Of a stretch of DNA of 42,848 nt, positions 9,985-29,199 are shown piece after piece (the stretch's first letter is position 1; every line of letters begins with the position of its first letter). Source of the DNA: a virus (lineage: Duplodnaviria > Heunggongvirae > Uroviricota > Caudoviricetes); the IMG/VR virus record IMGVR_UViG_2563366985_000002, positions 1 through 42,848 of that record, one strand, 5' to 3'. The notes below the pieces were generated by a model, which saw only the letters and a list, made by a program, of their open reading frames with translations, searched no databases and was not told where the DNA came from. The position numbers were made by a program, and so were the translations under genes.

Positions 9985-10731
9985 ATGAAAAATATTGCGA
10001 CAGGCGATGTTCTTGAACGTATCCGCAGACTGGCCCCGTCACATGTAACCGCGCCATTCAAGACGGTAGCGGAGTGGCGCGAGTGGCAACTTTCCGAAGG
10101 CCAGAAACGTTGTGAGGAGATCAACCGTCAGAATCGTCAGTTGCGGGTGGAAAAAATTCTGAATCGCTCTGGCATCCAGCCATTGCACCGCAAATGCTCG
10201 TTTTCGAATTACCAGGTGCAGAACGAAGGGCAGCGATACGCGTTGAGTCAGGCGAAATCCATCGCTGATGAACTGATGACCGGGTGTACAAATTTTGCGT
10301 TCAGCGGAAAACCTGGTACCGGGAAGAACCACTTAGCGGCAGCTATCGGGAATCGCCTGCTGAAAGACGGTCAGACAGTGATTGTGGTTACCGTGGCTGA
10401 TGTTATGAGTGCCCTGCACGCCAGCTATGACGATGGGCAGTCAGGCGAAAAATTTTTGCGGGAACTGTGCGAAGTGGATCTGCTGGTTCTTGATGAAATT
10501 GGCATTCAGCGCGAGACGAAAAACGAGCAGGTGGTACTGCACCAGATTGTTGATCGCCGGACAGCGTCGATGCGCAGCGTGGGGATGCTGACAAACCTGA
10601 ACTATGAGGCCATGAAAACATTGCTCGGCGAGCGGATTATGGATCGCATGACCATGAACGGCGGGCGATGGGTGAATTTTAACTGGGAGAGCTGGCGTCC
10701 GAATGTCGTCCAGCCAGGAATTGCGAAGTAA
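9985..10731 (+). CDS. ydaV: DnaC-like helicase loader (AAA+ ATPase) YdaV
   Basis: 248 aa; Walker [16 protein letters not shown] and Walker B LLVLDEIG; recognised as Rac YdaV. Confidence 0.85.
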
Positions 10732-12198: not shown

Positions 12199-13881
12199 AT
12201 GGCCAAACAGTTTATGTTAATGGAACCAAAAAATGAGAACTTCAATGAATTAATTGGAGGGTCAAATAAGTACATTGTTCCTAGATTCCAGCGAGACTAT
12301 GCTTGGGATGTAGAACAATGGGAGGACCTTTGGAGTGATGTTACAGCACTTGATGATGAAGGTTTTCATTATATGGGATATATAGTTCTTCAACAAAAAG
12401 AACAGTATCAACATGAGGTCATTGACGGTCAACAACGATTAGTAACCTTGTCGATTATAGTTCTAGCAGCCATGAAAGCCATTAAAAACTTGATAGATAA
12501 AGGAGAGGAGGTTGAACAAAACACAGAGCGACTTGATGCAATAACAAAGACATTTGTGGGTAACAAAAACTTCGTTTCATTAAAGGTGGTTAGCAAGCTA
12601 GATTTAAATAGAAATAATAAAAGATATTTTCAAAGCATCTGTTCAAACTTAGAAGCTCCTAATACTCGTGGAACTACATCTACAAATAAGCTACTCAAGA
12701 AATGCTTTGATTTTTTCCAAAAGAAGGAGTTCGGTAATACCGGCGCTGAGATCGCACAGTTTATTGCCGATTTTTCTTCGAGTATGGTTTTTACAAAAAT
12801 AGTTGTTCAAGATGATTTAAATGCATACAAAGTATTTGAAACTTTAAATGCGAGAGGAGTCCAGTTATCCACGCCAGATCTCTTAAAAAACTATTTGTTT
12901 TCGATAGTAACTAAGGATGAGAAAATCGGAGATGAGGAATTAGATGAGTTAGATGAGCAATGGTCGGAGATTATCGATCAGTTGGGAGAAAGCAATGTTT
13001 CTGATTACATTAGGTATCATCATAATTCTCATAGAAAAATGGTCACAAAAAATAATTTATACACTTCAATGAGAAAAGTAATTACAACCCCTAAAGAAGC
13101 ATACGATTATTTAAGATCACTGATAAATTCCGCACCTATTTATGCATCATTGATTAACCCGAATGATTCATGGTGGGCAGAGCAAGATACTAAATACAAG
13201 AAGGCCATTCATTATCTGAACGGCATTAGACTCTTTAATATTAGACAGCCATTAACAGTATTGCTATCAGCTTTTAATCAATTCAATCCAGATGAGTTCG
13301 TCAGCCTGACTCGTTATTTATATATTTTATCAATTAGATACAATGTTATTTGTCATTTATCACCAAGTGAACAAGAAAGCATGTATAATCAAATTGCGAT
13401 TAAGATCTCCAATAAGGAATACAAGAGAGCTAGCAATGTGAAAAATGGGGAGGAGTTTAAGAGGTTATATCCTGATGATAACGTGTTCTTTAATGCTTTT
13501 GAATTTCATCGAATGCCAAGTAGACAAACAGCCAAAAAAATTAGATTTCTCTTGGCTGAAATTGAACAATATCTTGGTAATAATTGCGATCATGAAAAAG
13601 TTACACTCGAACATATTTGTCCATTTAACCCAGAGAAGGGGTGGTGCAATTCGTTTGGGGAGGGGGTTAATGACGTAAAGGATAGGTTAGGAAATATGGT
13701 TTTGATGGATAAAGATAATCTAAAAAGAGCTTCATTTGAAGTGAAGAAAAATGAATATGGAAAATCAAAGTATAAATTAGCGGCTAAGATTACACAGTAT
13801 CCTGAATGGAATTTAGAGGCTGTCAATGATTTTCAAAAATGGATGTCGGAACAAGCAGTAAATGTATGGAAAGTTGGTTAA
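12199..13881 (+). CDS. DUF262/DUF1524 two-domain nuclease, GmrSD-family-like (putative type IV restriction / anti-phage defence)
   Basis: 560 aa; N-terminal DUF262 signature (FQRDYAW ... VIDGQQRLVT); C-terminal His-Me finger-like DUF1524 region (EKVTLEHICPF...N); gene markedly AT-rich relative to flanking prophage DNA. Confidence 0.75.
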   Translation: MAKQFMLMEPKNENFNELIGGSNKYIVPRFQRDYAWDVEQWEDLWSDVTALDDEGFHYMGYIVLQQKEQYQHEVIDGQQRLVTLSIIVLAAMKAIKNLIDKGEEVEQNTERLDAITKTFVGNKNFVSLKVVSKLDLNRNNKRYFQSICSNLEAPNTRGTTSTNKLLKKCFDFFQKKEFGNTGAEIAQFIADFSSSMVFTKIVVQDDLNAYKVFETLNARGVQLSTPDLLKNYLFSIVTKDEKIGDEELDELDEQWSEIIDQLGESNVSDYIRYHHNSHRKMVTKNNLYTSMRKVITTPKEAYDYLRSLINSAPIYASLINPNDSWWAEQDTKYKKAIHYLNGIRLFNIRQPLTVLLSAFNQFNPDEFVSLTRYLYILSIRYNVICHLSPSEQESMYNQIAIKISNKEYKRASNVKNGEEFKRLYPDDNVFFNAFEFHRMPSRQTAKKIRFLLAEIEQYLGNNCDHEKVTLEHICPFNPEKGWCNSFGEGVNDVKDRLGNMVLMDKDNLKRASFEVKKNEYGKSKYKLAAKITQYPEWNLEAVNDFQKWMSEQAVNVWKVG

Positions 13882-16210: not shown

Positions 16211-17549
16211 CATAAGCGCTAACTTAAGGGTTGAACCATCTGAAGAATGCGACGCCTCGGTGCCTCGTTAAGACGATGCCTCGCGTTCTTCAATTGCGTT
16301 TTGTAGGCTGTCAGGGATACTGTCCCACGAATGGCCACCTGTAAGCTCCAGATGACCATTTTTGTTATTCTCCACAACGAGTTAGTTCTTCTTTTCGGAT
16401 CCGGCACTTCTGGGGGGGAAATCCAGCGATGGCTGGATTATGTCGTCAATTAAAAATGCGGCGAGTAGATTAGCAAATATCCACGCTTTCGCGAGTTCAG
16501 GTTCCTTTGCACGCAAAGCATCCAGGTGCAGCAAACTTTTGAGCCGCTTAAAAGCCAGTTCAATTTGCCATCGCAGACGGTAACAATCAGCCACTTGCTC
16601 TGCTGAATATTCATCTTCCGGTAATGATGTTAGCAATAGCACATGGCCCGCTGCTTCCAGCGTTTCCGCCTGAACTACTCGTCCTTTTCGACGATTCTCG
16701 CTGAGCAGTCGGGTTTTACTGATTAATGCTTTTTCGGGAGGAAGTGATACGGCAATGAGACGTGCCGGAAAGGGAGCTCCGGCTTTTTTATTACCTGAAT
16801 TGCCTATCATTACAGTGGTTTCACCGTTCTTACCGCAATCCAGCCCGCGCAGAAAACCCATCATGTCAAAGCGCATTCCTTCTGCAGTTAACCAGCGCAA
16901 TCCTCGCCAGTGAACCCGGACGATATAATCAGCTTCTCCAAAAGCAAGTGAGCGGATACATTCGGGACGCGAACCGAATCCCCGGTCAGCAATGCGTATC
17001 TCGTCTGCCGTTTGCGCAAATCGGTCCAGCCGTTCAGCGTCTCTGCTGTCGGTTAGCTCAAAATCAGTGAACTGACAGGTATGAGGATCATATCCCATAT
17101 GTAGTCGCCATTCAGCGCTGCCGCCCCCGGGCGCACTGATTGCTGTTCCATCGACAAGACGCAATCTCTTTCCGCTTGTACAACCCGTAACTGCGGCGCG
17201 TACAGCAAGTGTTTGTGCGGCAAGTATGCCAAACCAGTCGGCGGCATTCCGCAGCCGCTTCAGGAGAGCCACGTCAGATAATGTTGCAACGTCATGGAGC
17301 TGAGCCCATGCAGTGACTTCACGTAATGACATCCCCCCGGGGCCGTAAGCCAGCCCCAGACGTAGCAGAGTTGCAGCATCACGAATTTCGCGGCGGCGGG
17401 TTAGAGCCCCGGCATTACGTGCCGAAGTATCCAGTTCTTCGGGCTTACCAATATGGGCCAGAATTGCTGACCAGTTATCGTGAGAGTAATTCATCGGCAC
17501 GTTAAATCATATCAGGCGTAATACCACAACCCTTAAGTTAGCGCTTATG
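16211..17549 (-). mobile_element. IS186 (IS4 family), complete copy
   Basis: 23-bp perfect terminal inverted repeats CATAAGCGCTAACTTAAGGGTTG at 16211-16233 and reverse-complemented at 17527-17549; encloses the transposase ORF; flanked by a 10-bp direct repeat. Confidence 0.85.
16382..17500 (-). CDS. insL: IS186 transposase
   Basis: 372-aa ORF (start possibly 2 codons in, at MNYSHDNW) recognised as IS186 InsL transposase. Confidence 0.9.
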   Translation of the reverse strand: MPMNYSHDNWSAILAHIGKPEELDTSARNAGALTRRREIRDAATLLRLGLAYGPGGMSLREVTAWAQLHDVATLSDVALLKRLRNAADWFGILAAQTLAVRAAVTGCTSGKRLRLVDGTAISAPGGGSAEWRLHMGYDPHTCQFTDFELTDSRDAERLDRFAQTADEIRIADRGFGSRPECIRSLAFGEADYIVRVHWRGLRWLTAEGMRFDMMGFLRGLDCGKNGETTVMIGNSGNKKAGAPFPARLIAVSLPPEKALISKTRLLSENRRKGRVVQAETLEAAGHVLLLTSLPEDEYSAEQVADCYRLRWQIELAFKRLKSLLHLDALRAKEPELAKAWIFANLLAAFLIDDIIQPSLDFPPRSAGSEKKN

Positions 17550-21777: not shown

Positions 21778-21914
21778 AATCTTAACTACAATATGATTCA
21801 TTTTGATGATTGTTTCATAAGGAACAGTGAAGTAAGATCTAAGAGGAGTTAAATTTTATACAGTATAATCATAATATTGCAGCAAGGTGGTTATAATTGA
21901 AAGAATATTTAGAT

Positions 21915-23372
21915 ATGAATACATCTCATGTAAGAGTTGTTACTCATATGTGTGGGTTCCTGGTTTGGCTCTATAGTCTTTCAATGTTGCCACCAATGGT
22001 TGTAGCATTGTTTTATAAAGAAAAAAGCCTGTTCGTTTTCTTTATAACTTTCGTTATATTTTTTTGCATTGGTGGCGGAGCGTGGTATACAACTAAGAAA
22101 TCTGGCATTCAATTACGTACCCGTGATGGGTTTATTATAATTGTAATGTTTTGGATTTTGTTTTCTGTTATTAGTGCATTCCCTTTATGGATTGACTCAG
22201 AACTTAATTTAACGTTCATTGATGCTCTGTTTGAAGGGGTTTCTGGAATAACAACAACAGGAGCAACTGTAATTGATGATGTTAGTTCATTACCTCGGGC
22301 ATATTTGTACTATCGGTCACAGTTAAATTTTATAGGTGGTTTAGGAGTTATTGTTCTGGCGGTTGCTGTATTGCCATTATTGGGTATTGGTGGTGCAAAG
22401 CTTTATCAGTCAGAAATGCCGGGGCCATTTAAGGATGACAAACTCACTCCCCGCCTGGCCGATACGTCACGGACACTGTGGATAACTTATTCTTTATTAG
22501 GTATTGCTTGTATTGTCTGTTATAGACTTGCAGGAATGCCTTTGTTTGATGCTATTTGTCACGGGATTTCCACAGTTTCGCTTGGTGGTTTCTCAACTCA
22601 TAGCGAGAGTATCGGATATTTTAATAACTATTTGGTTGAGCTGGTGGCTGGTTCTTTTTCCCTGCTATCGGCTTTCAACTTCACTCTTTGGTATATTGTT
22701 ATTAGCAGGAAAACGATAAAACCTTTAATCAGAGATATTGAACTTCGTTTCTTTCTGTTAATAGCCTTAGGGGTGATCATTGTTACCTCTTTCCAGGTCT
22801 GGCATATAGGTATGTATGACTTGCATGGAAGTTTTATTCATTCGTTTTTTCTTGCCAGCTCCATGCTCACTGATAATGGTTTAGCTACGCAGGATTATGC
22901 AAACTGGCCCACGCACACGATAGTGTTTTTGCTGTTGTCAAGTTTCTTTGGGGGATGTATAGGTTCAACTTGTGGTGGAATTAAGTCACTTCGATTTCTT
23001 ATACTTTTCAAACAAAGCAAACACGAGATAAATCAGCTTTCTCATCCCAGAGCGTTGTTGAGTGTAAATGTAGGAGGGAAGATAGTTACAGATCGTGTAA
23101 TGAGGTCTGTATGGAGTTTCTTTTTTCTTTATACTCTCTTCACGGTGTTTTTTATACTGGTGTTAAATGGTATGGGATATGATTTTCTTACATCATTTGC
23201 AACAGTGGCTGCATGTATTAATAATATGGGATTAGGTTTTGGGGCTACTGCATCGTCATTCGGAGTGCTTAATGACATTGCAAAATATTTAATGTGCATA
23301 GCTATGATTCTTGGTCGCCTTGAAATTTATCCTGTTATTATATTGTTTTCAGGTTTTTTTTGGCGCTCCTAA
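21915..23372 (+). CDS. trkG: TrkG potassium uptake protein (TrkH family)
   Basis: 485-aa polytopic membrane protein from MNTSHVRVVTHMCGF...; recognised as Rac TrkG; AT-rich gene. Confidence 0.9.
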   Translation: MNTSHVRVVTHMCGFLVWLYSLSMLPPMVVALFYKEKSLFVFFITFVIFFCIGGGAWYTTKKSGIQLRTRDGFIIIVMFWILFSVISAFPLWIDSELNLTFIDALFEGVSGITTTGATVIDDVSSLPRAYLYYRSQLNFIGGLGVIVLAVAVLPLLGIGGAKLYQSEMPGPFKDDKLTPRLADTSRTLWITYSLLGIACIVCYRLAGMPLFDAICHGISTVSLGGFSTHSESIGYFNNYLVELVAGSFSLLSAFNFTLWYIVISRKTIKPLIRDIELRFFLLIALGVIIVTSFQVWHIGMYDLHGSFIHSFFLASSMLTDNGLATQDYANWPTHTIVFLLLSSFFGGCIGSTCGGIKSLRFLILFKQSKHEINQLSHPRALLSVNVGGKIVTDRVMRSVWSFFFLYTLFTVFFILVLNGMGYDFLTSFATVAACINNMGLGFGATASSFGVLNDIAKYLMCIAMILGRLEIYPVIILFSGFFWRS

Positions 23373-23509: not shown

Positions 23510-24298
23510 ATGAGCGAGAAATTAAAGATAGTCTATCGCCCATTACAAGAATTGTCACCGTATGCGCACAACGCCAGGACGCACAGTACTGAGCAGGTGG
23601 CACAACTGGTAGAAAGTATTAAGCAATTCGGCTGGACTAATCCGGTGCTGATTGACGAAAAGGGCGAAATTATTGCGGGTCACGGTCGTGTTATGGCGGC
23701 TGAAATGCTCAAAATGGATTCTGTTCCGGTCATTGTTCTGTCTGGCCTGACGGATGAGCAGAAAAAGGCGTACCGCCTGGCAGATAATCGCCTACCGATG
23801 AATGCTGGCTGGGATGAAGATCTATTGCGGATGGAGCTGTCGGACCTAATCAATGCTGATTTTGATGTCTCCCTGACAGGCTTCGGCCCGACAGAAATTG
23901 ATGAACTGTTGACGGATGTTTTGCCCGGTACAGGAAATAAGGAGGAGCCGTATACGACGAAAATTGATACGCCTGTTTATGAGCCGTCGGGCGGTAAACC
24001 GGATATCAGTGAACTGTACGACGATACGAAAACTCAGGAGCTGATCAGCCGGATACGTTCGGCGTCCCTTGATCCTGATATTGAGAAATTCCTCCTGTGT
24101 GCGGCAGAACGTCACACGGTGTTTAATTTCAGCAGAATTGCGGACTATTACGCTCATGCCCCCGCTGAAATTCAGTGCCTTTTCGAGGAGTCGGCGCTGG
24201 TGATCATTGATTATCAGCAGGCTATTGAAAATGGATTTGTCCGAATGACGCAGCGCATGGTGGCGATCATGCATAGCGGGGAGGAGGAATATGCGTGA
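23510..24298 (+). CDS. ParB-like nuclease domain protein (YnaK-like, full length)
   Basis: 262 aa; N-terminal ParB/Srx-like segment (NPVLIDEKGEIIAGHGRVMAA); sits just upstream of the packaging genes. Confidence 0.65.
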   Translation: MSEKLKIVYRPLQELSPYAHNARTHSTEQVAQLVESIKQFGWTNPVLIDEKGEIIAGHGRVMAAEMLKMDSVPVIVLSGLTDEQKKAYRLADNRLPMNAGWDEDLLRMELSDLINADFDVSLTGFGPTEIDELLTDVLPGTGNKEEPYTTKIDTPVYEPSGGKPDISELYDDTKTQELISRIRSASLDPDIEKFLLCAAERHTVFNFSRIADYYAHAPAEIQCLFEESALVIIDYQQAIENGFVRMTQRMVAIMHSGEEEYA

Positions 24299-25223
24299 TG
24301 ATTTTTGCGCCTTTATTCTGACTCACGGGCGACCGGACAAAGTTCTGACTTACCGGACGTTGCGTCGTGCTGGCTATACCGGGAAAATTTTTATCGTTGT
24401 TGATGATGAAGATAAGACACGGCATCAGTACATGGCTGAATTTGGTGAACAGGTGCTGGTATTTTCCAAAGCCGATATTGCCAGTCGTTTTGACGAAGCC
24501 GATAATTTTGGTGACCGCCGCTCAATTTTTTACGCCCGTAATGCCTGTTTCGACCTGGCAAAACTGGTCGGGTGTAAATACTTCATTCAGCTCGATGATG
24601 ATTATCACGAGTTCCAGTTTCGGGTGGATCGCAACTATGACCAGGCCTATTTCCCGATAAGGAAACTGGATGCGATCCTTTCTGAAATGCTGGCGTATTA
24701 CGAATCAATACCCGCGCTTTCCATCGCTATGTCGCAGGGCGGGGATTTTCTTGGTGACAATGGCGGCCATGCTTCGTGGGTGAAACGCAAGGCAATGAAC
24801 AGCTTTATCTGTTCGGTTGATCGACCGTTCTCATTCATGGGGCGCATTAACGAGGATGTGAATACGTACACGAATCTCGGTCGCTGTGGTGAATTGTTTA
24901 TGACGATCGGTGCTGTCCAGTTAGGGCAGAAACAGACGCAGAAAAACAGCGGCGGAATGACCGAGCTGTATCTGGATTCCGGAACCTACGTTAAAAGTTT
25001 TTACTCCGTCATGTATGCGCCGTCGTGCGTAAAAATCTCACTGATGGGTGCCAGCCATAAACGCATTCACCATCAGGTCACCTGGAACAACGCTGCAGTA
25101 AAAATCCTTCACGAAAAATACAGGAAGAAGACACCCTGCATATCAATGGGGGTGACAAATGATTCCGTATTCGAAAGTCGAGTCTCTGGCAGCGTGCCGG
25201 ATGACTGCACAACAAATCGCTGA
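24291..25223 (+). CDS. Hypothetical protein (YdaY-like) with DDD acidic motif
   Basis: 310-aa ORF with strong GGAGGAGG Shine-Dalgarno; FIQLDDDYHEF motif reminiscent of a DxD nucleotide-sugar transferase site; 3' end uncertain because it overlaps the next ORF. Confidence 0.5.
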   Translation: MRDDFCAFILTHGRPDKVLTYRTLRRAGYTGKIFIVVDDEDKTRHQYMAEFGEQVLVFSKADIASRFDEADNFGDRRSIFYARNACFDLAKLVGCKYFIQLDDDYHEFQFRVDRNYDQAYFPIRKLDAILSEMLAYYESIPALSIAMSQGGDFLGDNGGHASWVKRKAMNSFICSVDRPFSFMGRINEDVNTYTNLGRCGELFMTIGAVQLGQKQTQKNSGGMTELYLDSGTYVKSFYSVMYAPSCVKISLMGASHKRIHHQVTWNNAAVKILHEKYRKKTPCISMGVTNDSVFESRVSGSVPDDCTTNR

Positions 25224-25410
25224 CGTTCTGGATGTTGATCTGAACCGACTGAAAGAAAATCGGGAAGCAATGACAGATTTTTATGCGGCCATCCGTAAGG
25301 GCAGAGCGAAAGGTGAAGCCGAGTTACGAGCGGCATTGTTTAAGCTTGCCAGAAAAGGGGATGCCTTTGCTCTGCGCGAACTACTCAGGGTGGATAAAAA
25401 TCAGGACTAA
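25159..25410 (+). CDS. Small HTH-like protein upstream of terminase (possible packaging accessory)
   Basis: 83-aa ORF with GGGGGTGA Shine-Dalgarno; overlaps the 3' end of the preceding ORF in another frame. Confidence 0.4.
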   Translation: MIPYSKVESLAACRMTAQQIADVLDVDLNRLKENREAMTDFYAAIRKGRAKGEAELRAALFKLARKGDAFALRELLRVDKNQD

Positions 25411-25413
25411 CTG

Positions 25414-26508
25414 ATGAGCAGACCGGACTGGGGGGCGTTGCAGCAGGAGTATATTGCTGAATACACCCGCTCCGGTATATCTCCGGTGGCATGGTGTGAA
25501 GCAAGGGGACTGAACTACGCAACAGCCCGTCGTTACATCAAAAAAACTCCGAAAAATGCGCAGAAAGAAATGCGCAAAACTGCGCAAAAAAGTGCGCGAA
25601 AAAAAACTGCGCAGACTGCGCAAAGGCAGAACGGAAAATCTCAGAAAAAAAAGGCTGTATCCGATGCACTCCTGATTGAGGGGGACACGGAAGAAATTTC
25701 GTTCTGCCCCGATGAATTCGGTATTTCTGACCAGCAGGCAAAATTCGCCATGTTGGTTGCTCAGGGGAAAAAGCCGACAGAGGCATACCGACTGGCTGGT
25801 TATGAGGGGCAAGGTGCGACAGCTAACAGCAACGCCAGCCGTATGCTTAGAAATGCCAGGGTTTATCGTGCTATCAGCTACTTCCGCAATCAGTACCAGA
25901 AACGCTATACCGCAGACCTGGATTTACTGGTGAGCCAGTTGATGGCCATTGTCCAGGCCGACCCCAATCAGTTGGCACAATTTCGCCGTGTTAACTGCCG
26001 TTATTGCTGGGGCGAGAATCATCTCTACCAGTGGCGTGATATTGCAGAATTCGATAAGGCTGCGGCACAGGCCTCCAGAGATGGTAAACCCGAGCCGGAA
26101 TATGGAGGCCTCGGCTTTGTTGATAACGCCATACCCAATCCGGATTGCCCGAAGTGCTGCGGTGAGGGAACGGGACAGCTTTATATGGCTGATACCACAC
26201 TGCTTGATGGGGATGCGCGGCAATTATATGCAGGGTCAAAGCTCGGAAAATACGGTGTTGAGATCCTGCTGGAGGATAAGGCTGCCGCCCGGCGTGAATT
26301 GTTGCGTTTGCTTTCTGCTGGCGGGGCATTATGTGCAGATAAACGGCTACAGGAACTGGAAATTGAACGGCGCAGAATAGAAAACCAGAAGCTGCGCAAA
26401 GAGATCGAAACGGTGGAGGATAATGAACATCCCCAGCCTGTGGCGATCAATATTAATGTGGTTGATGCCAGATTAAGGAGTGATGAAGATGATCTCTCCG
26501 ACGCTTAA
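25414..26508 (+). CDS. Terminase small subunit (putative)
   Basis: 364-aa ORF immediately upstream of and overlapping the large terminase; basic N-terminal region; contains a cluster of TGCGCA repeats. Confidence 0.55.
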   Translation: MSRPDWGALQQEYIAEYTRSGISPVAWCEARGLNYATARRYIKKTPKNAQKEMRKTAQKSARKKTAQTAQRQNGKSQKKKAVSDALLIEGDTEEISFCPDEFGISDQQAKFAMLVAQGKKPTEAYRLAGYEGQGATANSNASRMLRNARVYRAISYFRNQYQKRYTADLDLLVSQLMAIVQADPNQLAQFRRVNCRYCWGENHLYQWRDIAEFDKAAAQASRDGKPEPEYGGLGFVDNAIPNPDCPKCCGEGTGQLYMADTTLLDGDARQLYAGSKLGKYGVEILLEDKAAARRELLRLLSAGGALCADKRLQELEIERRRIENQKLRKEIETVEDNEHPQPVAININVVDARLRSDEDDLSDA

Positions 26509-27790
26509 TGTGCCTCAGGCGCGATTTCTTTCAATGCCCCATAAATTTAAAGCCTATATTGCTGGTTTTGGCTCGGGCAAAACATGGGTTGGGTGTGGCG
26601 GCATATGCAAGGGGATTTGGGAGCATCCAGGTATAAATCAGGGATATTTTGCGCCAACGTATCCCCAAATTCGCGATATTTTTTACCCTACAGTGGAAGA
26701 AGTTGCTGCTGACTGGGGATTGAACGTAAAAATTAATGAGGGAAATAAAGAGGTTCACTTTTATTACGGACGCCAGTATCGGGGAACCACTATCTGCAGA
26801 TCGATGGAGAAGCCACAAACGATCGTCGGTTTCAAAATTGGTAATGCGCTGGTGGATGAACTGGATATTTTGCCGAAGGAAAAAGCCAGAACGGCGTGGC
26901 GCAAGATAATTGCGCGTATGCGTTATAAGATTGATGGACTTCGCAACGGTATTGACGTTACAACCACGCCGGAAGGATTCAAATTTGTCTACGAGCAGTT
27001 TGTTAAAGCCGTGCGTGAAAAAACAGAGCTGGCCTCACTGTATGGTCTGGTGCAGGCATCTACTTTCGATAATGAAAAGAACCTGCCAGCAGATTACATT
27101 CCTTCACTTCTTGAATCATACCCTCCAGGGTTGATTAAAGCCTATCTTCTAGGACGGTTTACTAACCTGACAAGTGGTACTGTTTACCATCAGTTTGACC
27201 GGAAACTGAATAATTGCGAAGAAGTGGAGCAGCCAGGGGAGCCGATTTATATTGGGATGGATTTTAACGTTGGAAAGATGGCGGGAATCGTCCATGTGCT
27301 GCGTTTGGGGCTTCCATGTGCGGTAACTGAAATCATCAATGCCTACGATACGCCGGATATGATCCGCCTCATTAAAGAACGCTTCTGGCCGTATGACGGG
27401 CATGATTACCGGAAAGTGAGGGAGATTTATATTTATCCAGATGCTTCCGGAGATTCCAGAAAATCAAGTAACGCAAGTACGACGGATATAGCCCAGCTTA
27501 AGCAGGCAGGTTTTAACGTTGTGGTGAACAGCTCGAACCCGCCAGTAAAAGATCGCGTTAACTCAATGAATGCAATGTTCTGCAATGCCAATGGTGAGCG
27601 TCGCTATAAAGTTAATGTGAAGCGTTGTCCGGTATATGCCGAATCTCTGGAGCAACAGGTCTGGGATGATAAGGGGGAGCCTGATAAAAAATCTGGCAAT
27701 GATCACCCGAATGATGCCGGAGGTTATTTCATCGTTAAGCAATTCCCTATTGTCAAACCGACCGGAAGAGTCACATCACTTCGGATTTAA
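26480..27790 (+). CDS. Terminase large subunit
   Basis: 436 aa with Walker A-like GFGSGKT and nuclease-like C-terminal region; precedes portal. Confidence 0.85.
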   Translation: MMKMISPTLNVPQARFLSMPHKFKAYIAGFGSGKTWVGCGGICKGIWEHPGINQGYFAPTYPQIRDIFYPTVEEVAADWGLNVKINEGNKEVHFYYGRQYRGTTICRSMEKPQTIVGFKIGNALVDELDILPKEKARTAWRKIIARMRYKIDGLRNGIDVTTTPEGFKFVYEQFVKAVREKTELASLYGLVQASTFDNEKNLPADYIPSLLESYPPGLIKAYLLGRFTNLTSGTVYHQFDRKLNNCEEVEQPGEPIYIGMDFNVGKMAGIVHVLRLGLPCAVTEIINAYDTPDMIRLIKERFWPYDGHDYRKVREIYIYPDASGDSRKSSNASTTDIAQLKQAGFNVVVNSSNPPVKDRVNSMNAMFCNANGERRYKVNVKRCPVYAESLEQQVWDDKGEPDKKSGNDHPNDAGGYFIVKQFPIVKPTGRVTSLRI

Positions 27791-27792
27791 TT

Positions 27793-29199
27793 ATGGCTGA
27801 TATATCAACACCCAACCTCGACTATAACGATATGCTGGAGGCGTGGGATATTAACGACGCATTGATGGGCGGTACGCTTGAAATGCGCAGGCAGGGGGAA
27901 AATTATCTCCCCAAATGGCCTAATGAAGATGAAGACGCTTATAAAAAACGCCTGTCTGTGGCTACGCTACTTCCTGTGTATGAAGAAAGCATCAAACAAA
28001 ATATTGGGCGCATATTTGCAGAGCCGACAGTATTGAGTGAGGAAACGCCGGAAAAAATCAGGGAATATGCAGAAAATATCGACATGGAGGGGAGCCGACT
28101 GGATGTGTGGGCGCAGCAATTTTTCAGTCTCGCATTTCAGTATGGTGTGGCACATGCGCTGGTGGACTATCCACGAACGGATATGAACGAGATTCGGACA
28201 AAAGCCGATGAAAACGCGGCCGGTGGTCGCCCGTACGTTACGATGCTGAATCCACGCCAGGTTATTGGATGGAAATCGAAAGTTGAAAAAGGGAAAGTTG
28301 TTCTCACTGATTTGCGTATAAAAGAGGTCATCATTATTGATGGTGATGATTTCGGGCAGAAGAAGGTGGAGCAGATCCGCCATATTATGCCCCGTCGAGT
28401 AGAAATTTATCGACGCAGCGAAGGTACTAATGGCGAATCTGTCTGGATGCTTCATGAGTCATGGAATACCAGCCGTGATGATATTCCTCTGGTAACACTG
28501 TATACGAAGAAAACAGGGTTTATGCGTGGTACACCGCCATTGCTTAATCTTGGCTTGCTGAATATCAAGCACTGGCAAAGCCAGAGCGAGCAGGACAATA
28601 TTCTTCATGTTGCCCGCGTTCCATTGCTGGTGGCCTACGGGCTGGACAGGAATGAAGAACTGACGGTTGGTGCATCCACCGCTACGATTTTTGAGGACAG
28701 AACAAAAAATGGCCTCGAATATGTTGAACATAGTGGCGCAGCGATAGAATCTGGCGAAACATCACTTGAGAAGCTGGAAAATCAGATGCGTCATGCCGGC
28801 GCTAAACTTCTGCGGGCTGAAAATACATCCACCAAATCTGTTGATCAGACTAATGAAGAGCGGATGCAGGAACACTCGCCGCTTTATACAATGGCGAACT
28901 CCCTCGAAGATGCCCTCGATAATATTCTCCAGATAATGGCGGAATGGAGCGGAGAGAGTTGCGGTGGCAATGTGGATGTGCGCACTGAACTGGATGTATC
29001 TGCCCAGGTGTTTGACTCATCCTCCGCGCTGGCTGTTCAGTCATTGCGTCAGGGCGGTGATATACGTCAGATTGATGCGGTTCGGGTGTTGCAGGCGTTG
29101 AAATTTATCGATCAGGATTCCCGTCCAGAGGAAGTGATCGATGAATTAAAAAATCAGAGTGTAATGCTGATGGAAATCAATGATGCAAACCGTGAATGA
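27793..29199 (+). CDS. Portal protein
   Basis: 468-aa ORF directly after terminase, typical order and size. Confidence 0.8.
   Translation: MADISTPNLDYNDMLEAWDINDALMGGTLEMRRQGENYLPKWPNEDEDAYKKRLSVATLLPVYEESIKQNIGRIFAEPTVLSEETPEKIREYAENIDMEGSRLDVWAQQFFSLAFQYGVAHALVDYPRTDMNEIRTKADENAAGGRPYVTMLNPRQVIGWKSKVEKGKVVLTDLRIKEVIIIDGDDFGQKKVEQIRHIMPRRVEIYRRSEGTNGESVWMLHESWNTSRDDIPLVTLYTKKTGFMRGTPPLLNLGLLNIKHWQSQSEQDNILHVARVPLLVAYGLDRNEELTVGASTATIFEDRTKNGLEYVEHSGAAIESGETSLEKLENQMRHAGAKLLRAENTSTKSVDQTNEERMQEHSPLYTMANSLEDALDNILQIMAEWSGESCGGNVDVRTELDVSAQVFDSSSALAVQSLRQGGDIRQIDAVRVLQALKFIDQDSRPEEVIDELKNQSVMLMEINDANRE

Follow-up and report, generated by a model that had tools for sequence, protein, structure and literature searches.

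Hexamer repeats inside the small-terminase gene of a Rac-like prophage as the probable recognition part of a P1-type pac site

The stretch of DNA analyzed here (the window; all 42,848 nucleotides of IMG/VR virus record IMGVR_UViG_2563366985_000002) is a Rac-like lambdoid prophage of Escherichia coli. Its small-terminase gene, terS, contains a tight array of six TGCGC[AG] hexamers, which we consider probably (at roughly 0.72) to be the recognition part of a P1-type pac site that serves the prophage's own small terminase subunit (TerS). A preliminary description of the window had put forward the array as the DNA site recognized by the terminase. That proposal is now supported by four lines of evidence, and it is because of these that we favor a P1-type pac site: constraint acting on the DNA itself, a conserved position in the gene, co-variation with the TerS N-terminal domain, and a probable homology of that domain to PacA of phage P1.

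The array consists of five TGCGCA hexamers starting at 25557, 25571, 25581, 25608, and 25617 and one TGCGCG starting at 25593, with start-to-start spacings of 14, 10, 12, 15, and 9 bp, and occupies +143 to +208 of terS. The preliminary description had given six TGCGCA/TGCGCG hexamers within 66 bp at a spacing of 9 to 15 bp, encoding a basic, KTAQ-rich stretch inside a small-terminase gene. Its coordinates were exact, the encoded peptide is NAQKEMRKTAQKSARKKTAQTAQR, and the open reading frame (ORF) at 25414-26508 matches both Pfam Terminase_2 (PF03592; 36.1 bits against a gathering score of 26.1, residues 122 to 316) and PHROG 51 (terminase small subunit; E = 6e-75). Missing from it was the codon phase: five hexamers are read as xxT-GCG-CAx (Ala-Gln or Ala-Arg), and the one at 25571 alone is read as xTG-CGC-Axx (Met-Arg-Lys). 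Across the 42.8-kb window, TGCGCR occurs 59 times on both strands combined, compared to 60 expected, so the anomaly is purely local. A density of six sites in 66 bp was reached in none of 300 first-order Markov resamplings (maximum, 3), and by a Poisson estimate, ~1e-8 clusters of this kind would be expected per window. The next TGCGCR lies at 26214, which leaves the window with a single arm. Tandem Repeats Finder (TRF) reports imperfect arrays with periods of 12, 24, and 36, 73 to 82% matches, and up to 19% indels. The array is a degenerate repeat and not a clean tandem duplication.

The hexamers are far more frequent than the encoded protein would require. When codons 43 to 90 were recoded synonymously using the codon usage of the genes themselves, 0.65 TGCGCA was expected in the window gene compared to 5 observed, a number reached in none of 2,000 simulations; over 50 genes, 24 were expected and 236 observed. 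Overall, the hexamers exceed by 8- to 10-fold the number that synonymous recoding would give for this peptide. We also collected related loci by the N-terminal protein domain alone, using pattern-based locus searches, as a protein search with the 44-residue domain gave short fragments. Each of the 66 loci obtained represents a different species of Enterobacterales, Vibrio, or Aeromonas; density and hexamer counts were made on the 53 loci whose ARR[YH]IK-type domain is intact. In these 53 loci, TGCGCA reaches 61 per kb at +120 to +179 of the gene, compared to ~0.3 per kb over the surrounding 3 kb. It is also the top word of an unbiased hexamer count (242 copies, 45-fold enriched), with two or more copies in 51 of the 53 loci. 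All three codon phases are used among the relatives (178, 61, and 10 hexamers), and the encoded peptide varies with the phase (AQ, [LVM]R, or CA). In the Klebsiella prophages ST11-VIM1phi8.2 and ST405-OXA48phi1.3, a single array holds six TGCGCA that between them use all three phases and encode TAQTAQKPAQKKLRTAQKEKCAEE. Although the N-terminal domains share only ~50 to 58% identity between Aeromonas, Vibrio, and E. coli, the array is kept in these genes, with varying spacing and pairing partners. As judged from these comparisons, it is the nucleotide word that is constrained, and the peptide of the linker tolerates this.

The protein segment encoded by the array is one that would be expected to permit this. 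In TerS, an N-terminal domain is followed by a linker, a Terminase_2 body into which a CxxC...CxxC segment is inserted, and a coiled coil at the C terminus. The full-length AlphaFold2 (AF2) model is poor (mean predicted local distance difference test [pLDDT] score of 52) and was used for domain boundaries only. Residues 1 to 44 form a confident three-helix domain (pLDDT 73 to 88) with helices at 6-20, 24-30, and 35-41 (pLDDT 79 to 88), followed by a low-confidence basic linker at residues 46 to 93 (pLDDT <50), a second helical domain at residues 99 to 182 (pLDDT 77 to 89), and a poorly modelled C-terminal part containing a long helix. The hexamers encode residues 48 to 70, and the array therefore lies wholly inside the linker, which is predicted to be disordered, so that the protein would constrain the array DNA little. 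Foldseek returned no significant match for the model of the N-terminal domain, the best hits being helix-turn-helix (HTH) DNA binders, all with E >0.5, and a sequence search of the PDB with this domain gave no match. The domain is predicted to be HTH-like on the basis of its helix topology, together with weak matches of PacA to Pfam HTH_23 and HTH_28.

Among the genes compared, the array co-varies with the 44-residue N-terminal domain and not with the rest of TerS. The terS genes of the two Klebsiella prophages are homologous to the window gene over their first 44 codons (~61 to 64% amino acid identity), continue into another body, and carry their six TGCGCA, and locus L159 joins an ARRHIK helix and five TGCGCA to a 933W-type TerS body. 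Conversely, phage pPE4 (L004, vB_Apl-pPE4) shares the Terminase_2 body of the window gene (91% nucleotide identity from ~25707 on) but begins with a different N-terminal domain and lacks TGCGCA, with four GTTTCCAC/GTGGAAAC copies, two per orientation, in the corresponding place (~1345-1400). The pPE4 record is labelled as an Actinobacillus phage despite this 91% identity of its terS body to that of an E. coli prophage. Only three loci with a pPE4-type N-terminal domain were found, two of them distant and without clear repeats, and these loci do not support a generality beyond PacA-like domains. The search was also run in reverse, from the motif alone: of the first 80 loci returned from viral contigs for three closely spaced TGCGCA, at least 59 encode the N-terminal domain immediately upstream. 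This putative reading domain was seen only in fusion with terminase bodies, which belong to four or more PHROG TerS families.

The hexamer itself appears to change with a single residue of the domain. Approximately 150 distinct ARR[YH]IK domains are accompanied by a mean of 5 to 7 TGCGCA and ~0 TGCGAA, and 11 AKRYIK domains by ~0 TGCGCA and 5 to 7 TGCGAA/TTCGCA. Instead of TGCGCA, arrays of the AKRYIK class have repeats of TGCGAA(T) and a 12-bp palindrome, TGCGAATTCGCA. Members include eight genome loci (Table 1) and the phages vB_YenM_30.14 of Yersinia (L153) and Pmp11 of Pasteurella (L152), the latter with approximately nine TGCGAA. The motif-scan loci are biased for TGCGCA, and the protein-selected sets give the same class picture. 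Outside residue 39, loci L089 and L090 share 91% identity, and Pmp11 lies as far from the one as from the other. Because the ARRYIK and AKRYIK classes are interleaved in sequence, the association between motif and domain is not just one inherited event. Base 5 of the hexamer (C in TGCGCA, A in TGCGAA) appears to be determined by whether residue 39 is Arg or Lys, and this pairing of Arg39/Lys39 with C5/A5 suggests that residue 39, in the third helix, would contact base pair 5.

The same domain probably shares ancestry with the N terminus of PacA. A profile of the N-terminal domain aligned to residues 3 to 42 of P1 PacA with an hhalign probability of 90.9% (E = 1.1e-6), and pairwise BLASTP of the TerS domain with PacA gave an E value of 0.007. 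The PacA N terminus has weak, subthreshold matches to Pfam HTH_23, HTH_28, and HTH_Tnp_1.

Taken together, these observations point to a TerS with an N-terminal HTH-like domain (residues 1 to 44), a disordered basic linker, and an oligomerizing Terminase_2-type body, in which the DNA encoding the linker would hold short sites for that same N-terminal domain. Each domain would read one hexamer, and several domains of one TerS oligomer would bind hexamers 7 to 16 bp apart cooperatively. TerS bound in this way would mark concatemeric phage DNA and recruit the large terminase subunit (TerL; Terminase_6N/6C), which would cut somewhere nearby, and headful packaging would begin after the cut. Physical binding, cooperativity, nearby cleavage, and headful packaging are the inferred parts of this scheme. 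Jersey-like phages, Kagunavirus, and Dhillonvirus package by headful, and headful packaging is proposed here because TerL is a Terminase_6N/6C protein whose relatives are found in these three groups of siphophages.

Several observations weigh against a P1-type pac site. The homology to PacA is only probable and spans ~40 residues; BLASTP finds no significant similarity of the remaining TerS, or of TerL, to PacA or PacB; and PacA is not known to read its hexamers via its N-terminal domain. The window has one arm of six hexamers, unlike P1, in which arms of four and three flank the cut, and no integration host factor (IHF) consensus was found at 25300-26000. The literature searched links TGCGCA to no terminase, and no description of the array was found in it. 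Related loci share ancestry, so the counts given above are not counts of independent events. Finally, some close E. coli relatives have point-mutated units (TGTGCA or TGCACA) or only three to five units.

Unit number ranges from 3 to 6 in near-identical E. coli prophages (L005-L088 compared to window 25504-25713). Units have been lost where 9, 12, or 27 bp between repeats were deleted in frame, and the TGCGCG of the window (25593) is TGCGCA in most relatives. As read from these alignments, the variation fits a redundant site array in which no single hexamer is essential. In Rac-SA53 (L001, KU052037; 1412-2440), annotated as an O-terS fusion by deletion, the N-terminal domain is lost and two hexamers are kept; its packaging recognition is presumably defective. 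Many relatives, the window not among them, have two more TGCGCA 12 bp apart, ~160 to 220 bp downstream of the main array (+359 and +371 in Klebsiella ST11-VIM1phi8.2, L002 1802-1819; the relatives' peak lies at +300 to +419). This pair encodes VAQAIAQ or FAQNIAQ and may represent a second arm, like HEX3 of P1, or no more than conservation of the peptide. In an unrelated GC-rich viral contig (L186, ~10434-10540), TGCGCA/TTGCGC units lie iteron-like in a replication-initiator-like ORF, and it looks like TGCGCA serves as a repeat in another context too.

A sequence-specific contact between TerS and the array could also serve a purpose other than packaging. The array might be a binding site of TerS or of another protein for regulation, such as autoregulation of terS and terL by TerS; the DNA-level and co-variation data show a sequence-specific protein-DNA relationship and not its purpose, and the array lies inside a transcribed late operon. 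However, no promoter-like site was found at 25000-26000, the putative reading domain is joined to terminase bodies of several families and was seen in no other fusion, and the one experimentally studied homologous arrangement, pacA/pac of P1, is a packaging site (PMC10028697). Because of the P1 precedent, we favor packaging over a regulatory operator and regard the latter as unlikely. Epigenetic control is another idea, in which the hexamers would be targets of methylation or restriction (HhaI-type for GCGC, FspI-type for TGCGCA) or be tied to the glycosyltransferase and ParB-like genes. It is prompted by the control of P1 pac via hexamer methylation (PMC10028697) and by the TET-associated-type glycosyltransferase and ParB_N protein encoded directly upstream of terS. 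Against this, neither a DNA methyltransferase nor a TET gene was found among the genes of the window, the TGCGAA of sister arrays contains no GCGC, no GATC surrounds the array, and the Klebsiella terS genes carry the same array without glycosyltransferase or ParB genes upstream. We rejected the idea, given the missing methyltransferase and TET genes and the sister motifs without GCGC, and hold it to be highly improbable.

Two further explanations were weighed. Palindromic hexamers could act through nucleic acid structure, as mRNA hairpins affecting translation or stability or as minus-strand terminators against antisense transcription. The RNA fold of 25540-25640 has three hairpins (-29.5 kcal/mol, z = -3.85), the Klebsiella array gives z = -3.3, and three intrinsic-terminator-like sites, formed by neighboring hexamer pairs and T-runs, were called on the minus strand at 25557-25623. 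Any repeated palindrome automatically gives hairpin potential, though, and with A-rich spacers such structure is a probable by-product. Spacing and pairing partners are not conserved, and the arrays of Pmp11 (nine TGCGAA in one orientation, z = +1.25) and 933W (z = -0.31) lie at the same position without structure, on which ground an RNA hairpin or antisense terminator was rejected as the conserved feature; we give this explanation very little credence. The remaining one is that the array has no function at the DNA level and is a by-product of a low-complexity K/T/A/Q peptide or of recent tandem duplication or slippage. The TRF periodicities, the loss of units through in-frame deletions in close relatives, and the predicted disorder of the encoded segment all fit such an origin. 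It does not account for an 8- to 10-fold excess over the synonymous-codon expectation, for the use of all three codon phases with different peptides, for persistence of the array from Aeromonas and Vibrio to E. coli alongside diverged N-terminal domains, or for a motif that switches cleanly with one residue of that domain. The comparative data strongly disfavor this explanation, which we consider very improbable.

The coordinates of the features discussed are listed in Table 1.

Table 1. Coordinates of terS, its parts, and related features (window positions unless a locus is named)
Feature	Coordinates	Strand	Basis or remark
terS, small terminase subunit, 364 aa	25414..26508	+	Pfam Terminase_2 (aa 122-316), PHROG 51, AF2
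TerS N-terminal domain, aa 1-44, MSRPDWGALQQEYIAEYTRSGISPVAWCEARGLNYATARRYIKK	25414..25545	+	Predicted three-helix, HTH-like, PacA-like; proposed hexamer reader
Basic linker, aa 45-93	25546..25692	+	Predicted disordered; array embedded at aa 48-70
Six-hexamer array, TGCGC[AG]	25557..25622	.	A-rich spacers; proposed TerS recognition element of pac site
terL, large terminase subunit (ATPase, nuclease)	26480..27790	+	Terminase_6N E 3e-31, Terminase_6C E 8e-11
Portal protein gene	27793..29199	+	Pfam DUF4055 E 7e-45; related phage record annotated alike
AKRYIK genome loci (8): L090, L092, L096, L098, L103, L106, L113, L117	+105..+300 of terS		

From terS on, the gene order is terS, terL (whose start at 26480 overlaps the end of terS), portal (DUF4055), a Mu-F-like protein, a P22-like coat protein, and a tape-measure protein. 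Elsewhere, the prophage encodes an integrase, RecT, RecE, SieB, YdaT, a GmrSD-type nuclease, an insertion sequence (IS), a Q antiterminator, a holin, an endolysin, Rz, TrkH/TrkG-like cargo, a ParB_N protein, and a TAGT-family glycosyltransferase. The IS transposase (DDE_Tnp_1) lies at 16382-17500, in the early-to-late region, and a full-length TrkH/TrkG-like potassium transporter gene, a hallmark of Rac prophages, lies between the lysis and packaging modules (21897-23372). The genes for the ParB_N protein and the TET-associated-type (TAGT) glycosyltransferase are directly upstream of terS (23510-25223); the PHROG name of the latter is beta-glucosyl-HMC alpha-glucosyltransferase, and the GmrSD-type nuclease (12199-13881) is a type IV enzyme against modified DNA. 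An 83-residue ORF at 25159-25410 overlaps the end of the glycosyltransferase gene, stops 4 bp before terS, and matches only the middle of small-terminase family phrog_309 (positions 145 to 218 of 319). We considered this ORF as the reader of the array and rejected it: it is found upstream of terS in only 4 of the 66 related loci and is therefore not the array's constant partner.

Beyond this prophage, the window could be one case of a widespread, modular, and readable pac-recognition module in which a PacA-like HTH domain, with an array of its own sites in the linker DNA, is placed on unrelated terminase bodies; on present comparisons we consider the odds of this to be even. Such a module may be shared by P1, Shiga toxin (Stx) phages, Rac-like and Klebsiella prophages, and phages of Pasteurella, Yersinia, Vibrio, and Aeromonas. 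The 5' region of this terS was found in 882 of 5,426 complete E. coli genomes. Experimentally defined pac sites are available for only a few phages, and the sequence specificity of small terminases in recognizing pac has been described as elusive and controversial (PMC9611059). If such a module exists, pac specificity could become predictable from sequence for a large set of prophages, and the way in which small terminases recognize DNA could be studied with a sequence-specific TerS-DNA pair that varies in nature, its Arg/Lys and C/A variants providing a clean test system. A pac element recognizable in sequence would also predict the start points of transduction and the direction of lateral or generalized transduction, and it would enable the design of packageable plasmids and phagemids, as has been done with P1 pac.

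Among known systems, the preliminary description had cited P22 and SPP1 as precedents. Of these, P22 is a poor match, SPP1 is also a weaker parallel, and P1, with TGATCA/G hexamers in pacA, is the right one. Like the array, the pac site of P22, which is in gene 3, lies within a small-terminase gene, that of a lambdoid phage that packages by headful. However, P22 pac is a single 22-bp asymmetric sequence and not a repeat array (PMC9611059), and the window has no match to it at up to three mismatches. With G1P of SPP1 and SF6, the window TerS shares the Pfam family of its body, Terminase_2. In those phages, pacL and pacR lie in or beside terS, and an oligomer with outward-facing HTH domains makes multiple contacts (PMC9611059, PMC4737164), though binding is reportedly weak and largely sequence independent (PMC9611059). 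The window TerS differs in having an extra N-terminal domain and linker before the Terminase_2 HTH, and it is with the extra domain that the array co-varies.

The likeness to P1 is more detailed. P1 pac is a 161-bp site comprising seven TGATCA/G hexamers, with Dam sites, and an IHF site; methylation of the hexamers controls the site, and their synonymous mutation cuts packaging ~9-fold (PMC10028697). In the P1 record, the hexamers start at +193, +200, +212, and +227 and at +323, +335, and +346 of pacA (+193 to +351), with spacings of 7, 12, and 15 bp in one arm and 12 and 11 bp in the other, in mixed codon phases, and the cleavage sites are at +275 to +284. Both P1 and the window have a cluster of palindromic TG-xx-CA/G hexamers within the first third of the gene for the small subunit, shortly after the codons of the homologous N-terminal domain, with irregular spacing (7 to 15 bp), mixed codon phases, and an A/G degeneracy at the last base (TGATCA/G in P1, TGCGCA/G in the window). 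They differ in the core of the hexamer, which is GATC in P1 and GCGC in the window, and in virion type, that of the window being lambdoid and Rac-like. No GATC is present between 25240 and 26262 of the window, and Dam methylation control is therefore impossible at this site.

In the Stx phages 933W, VT2-Sakai, phi24B, and many others, TerS has a homologous N-terminal domain (~40% identical) and a repeat array at the same position, but the helix region reads ARTRIK in place of ARRYIK, and the array has Dam sites, as in P1. In 933W (L151, AF125520; 1341-1382), the array consists of four [CT]GATCA(TGA) units with an exact 12-bp period in one codon phase. The 933W peptide IDHEIDHKTDHEIDH resembles IIDHSNDQHAGDH of PacA. 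No published pac assignment for Stx phages was found in the literature searched, and the comparison suggests that Stx-converting phages have a P1-like, possibly Dam-sensitive pac site. A pac site made of hexamer repeats inside the small-subunit gene is already known from P1. What is new here is the TGCGCA word, a site free of Dam control, the presence of a PacA-like domain on Terminase_2 and other TerS bodies, and an apparent one-residue switch of specificity. If our reading of the array is true, the architecture of P1 pac extends beyond P1-like phages, and Dam control is an optional addition to it.

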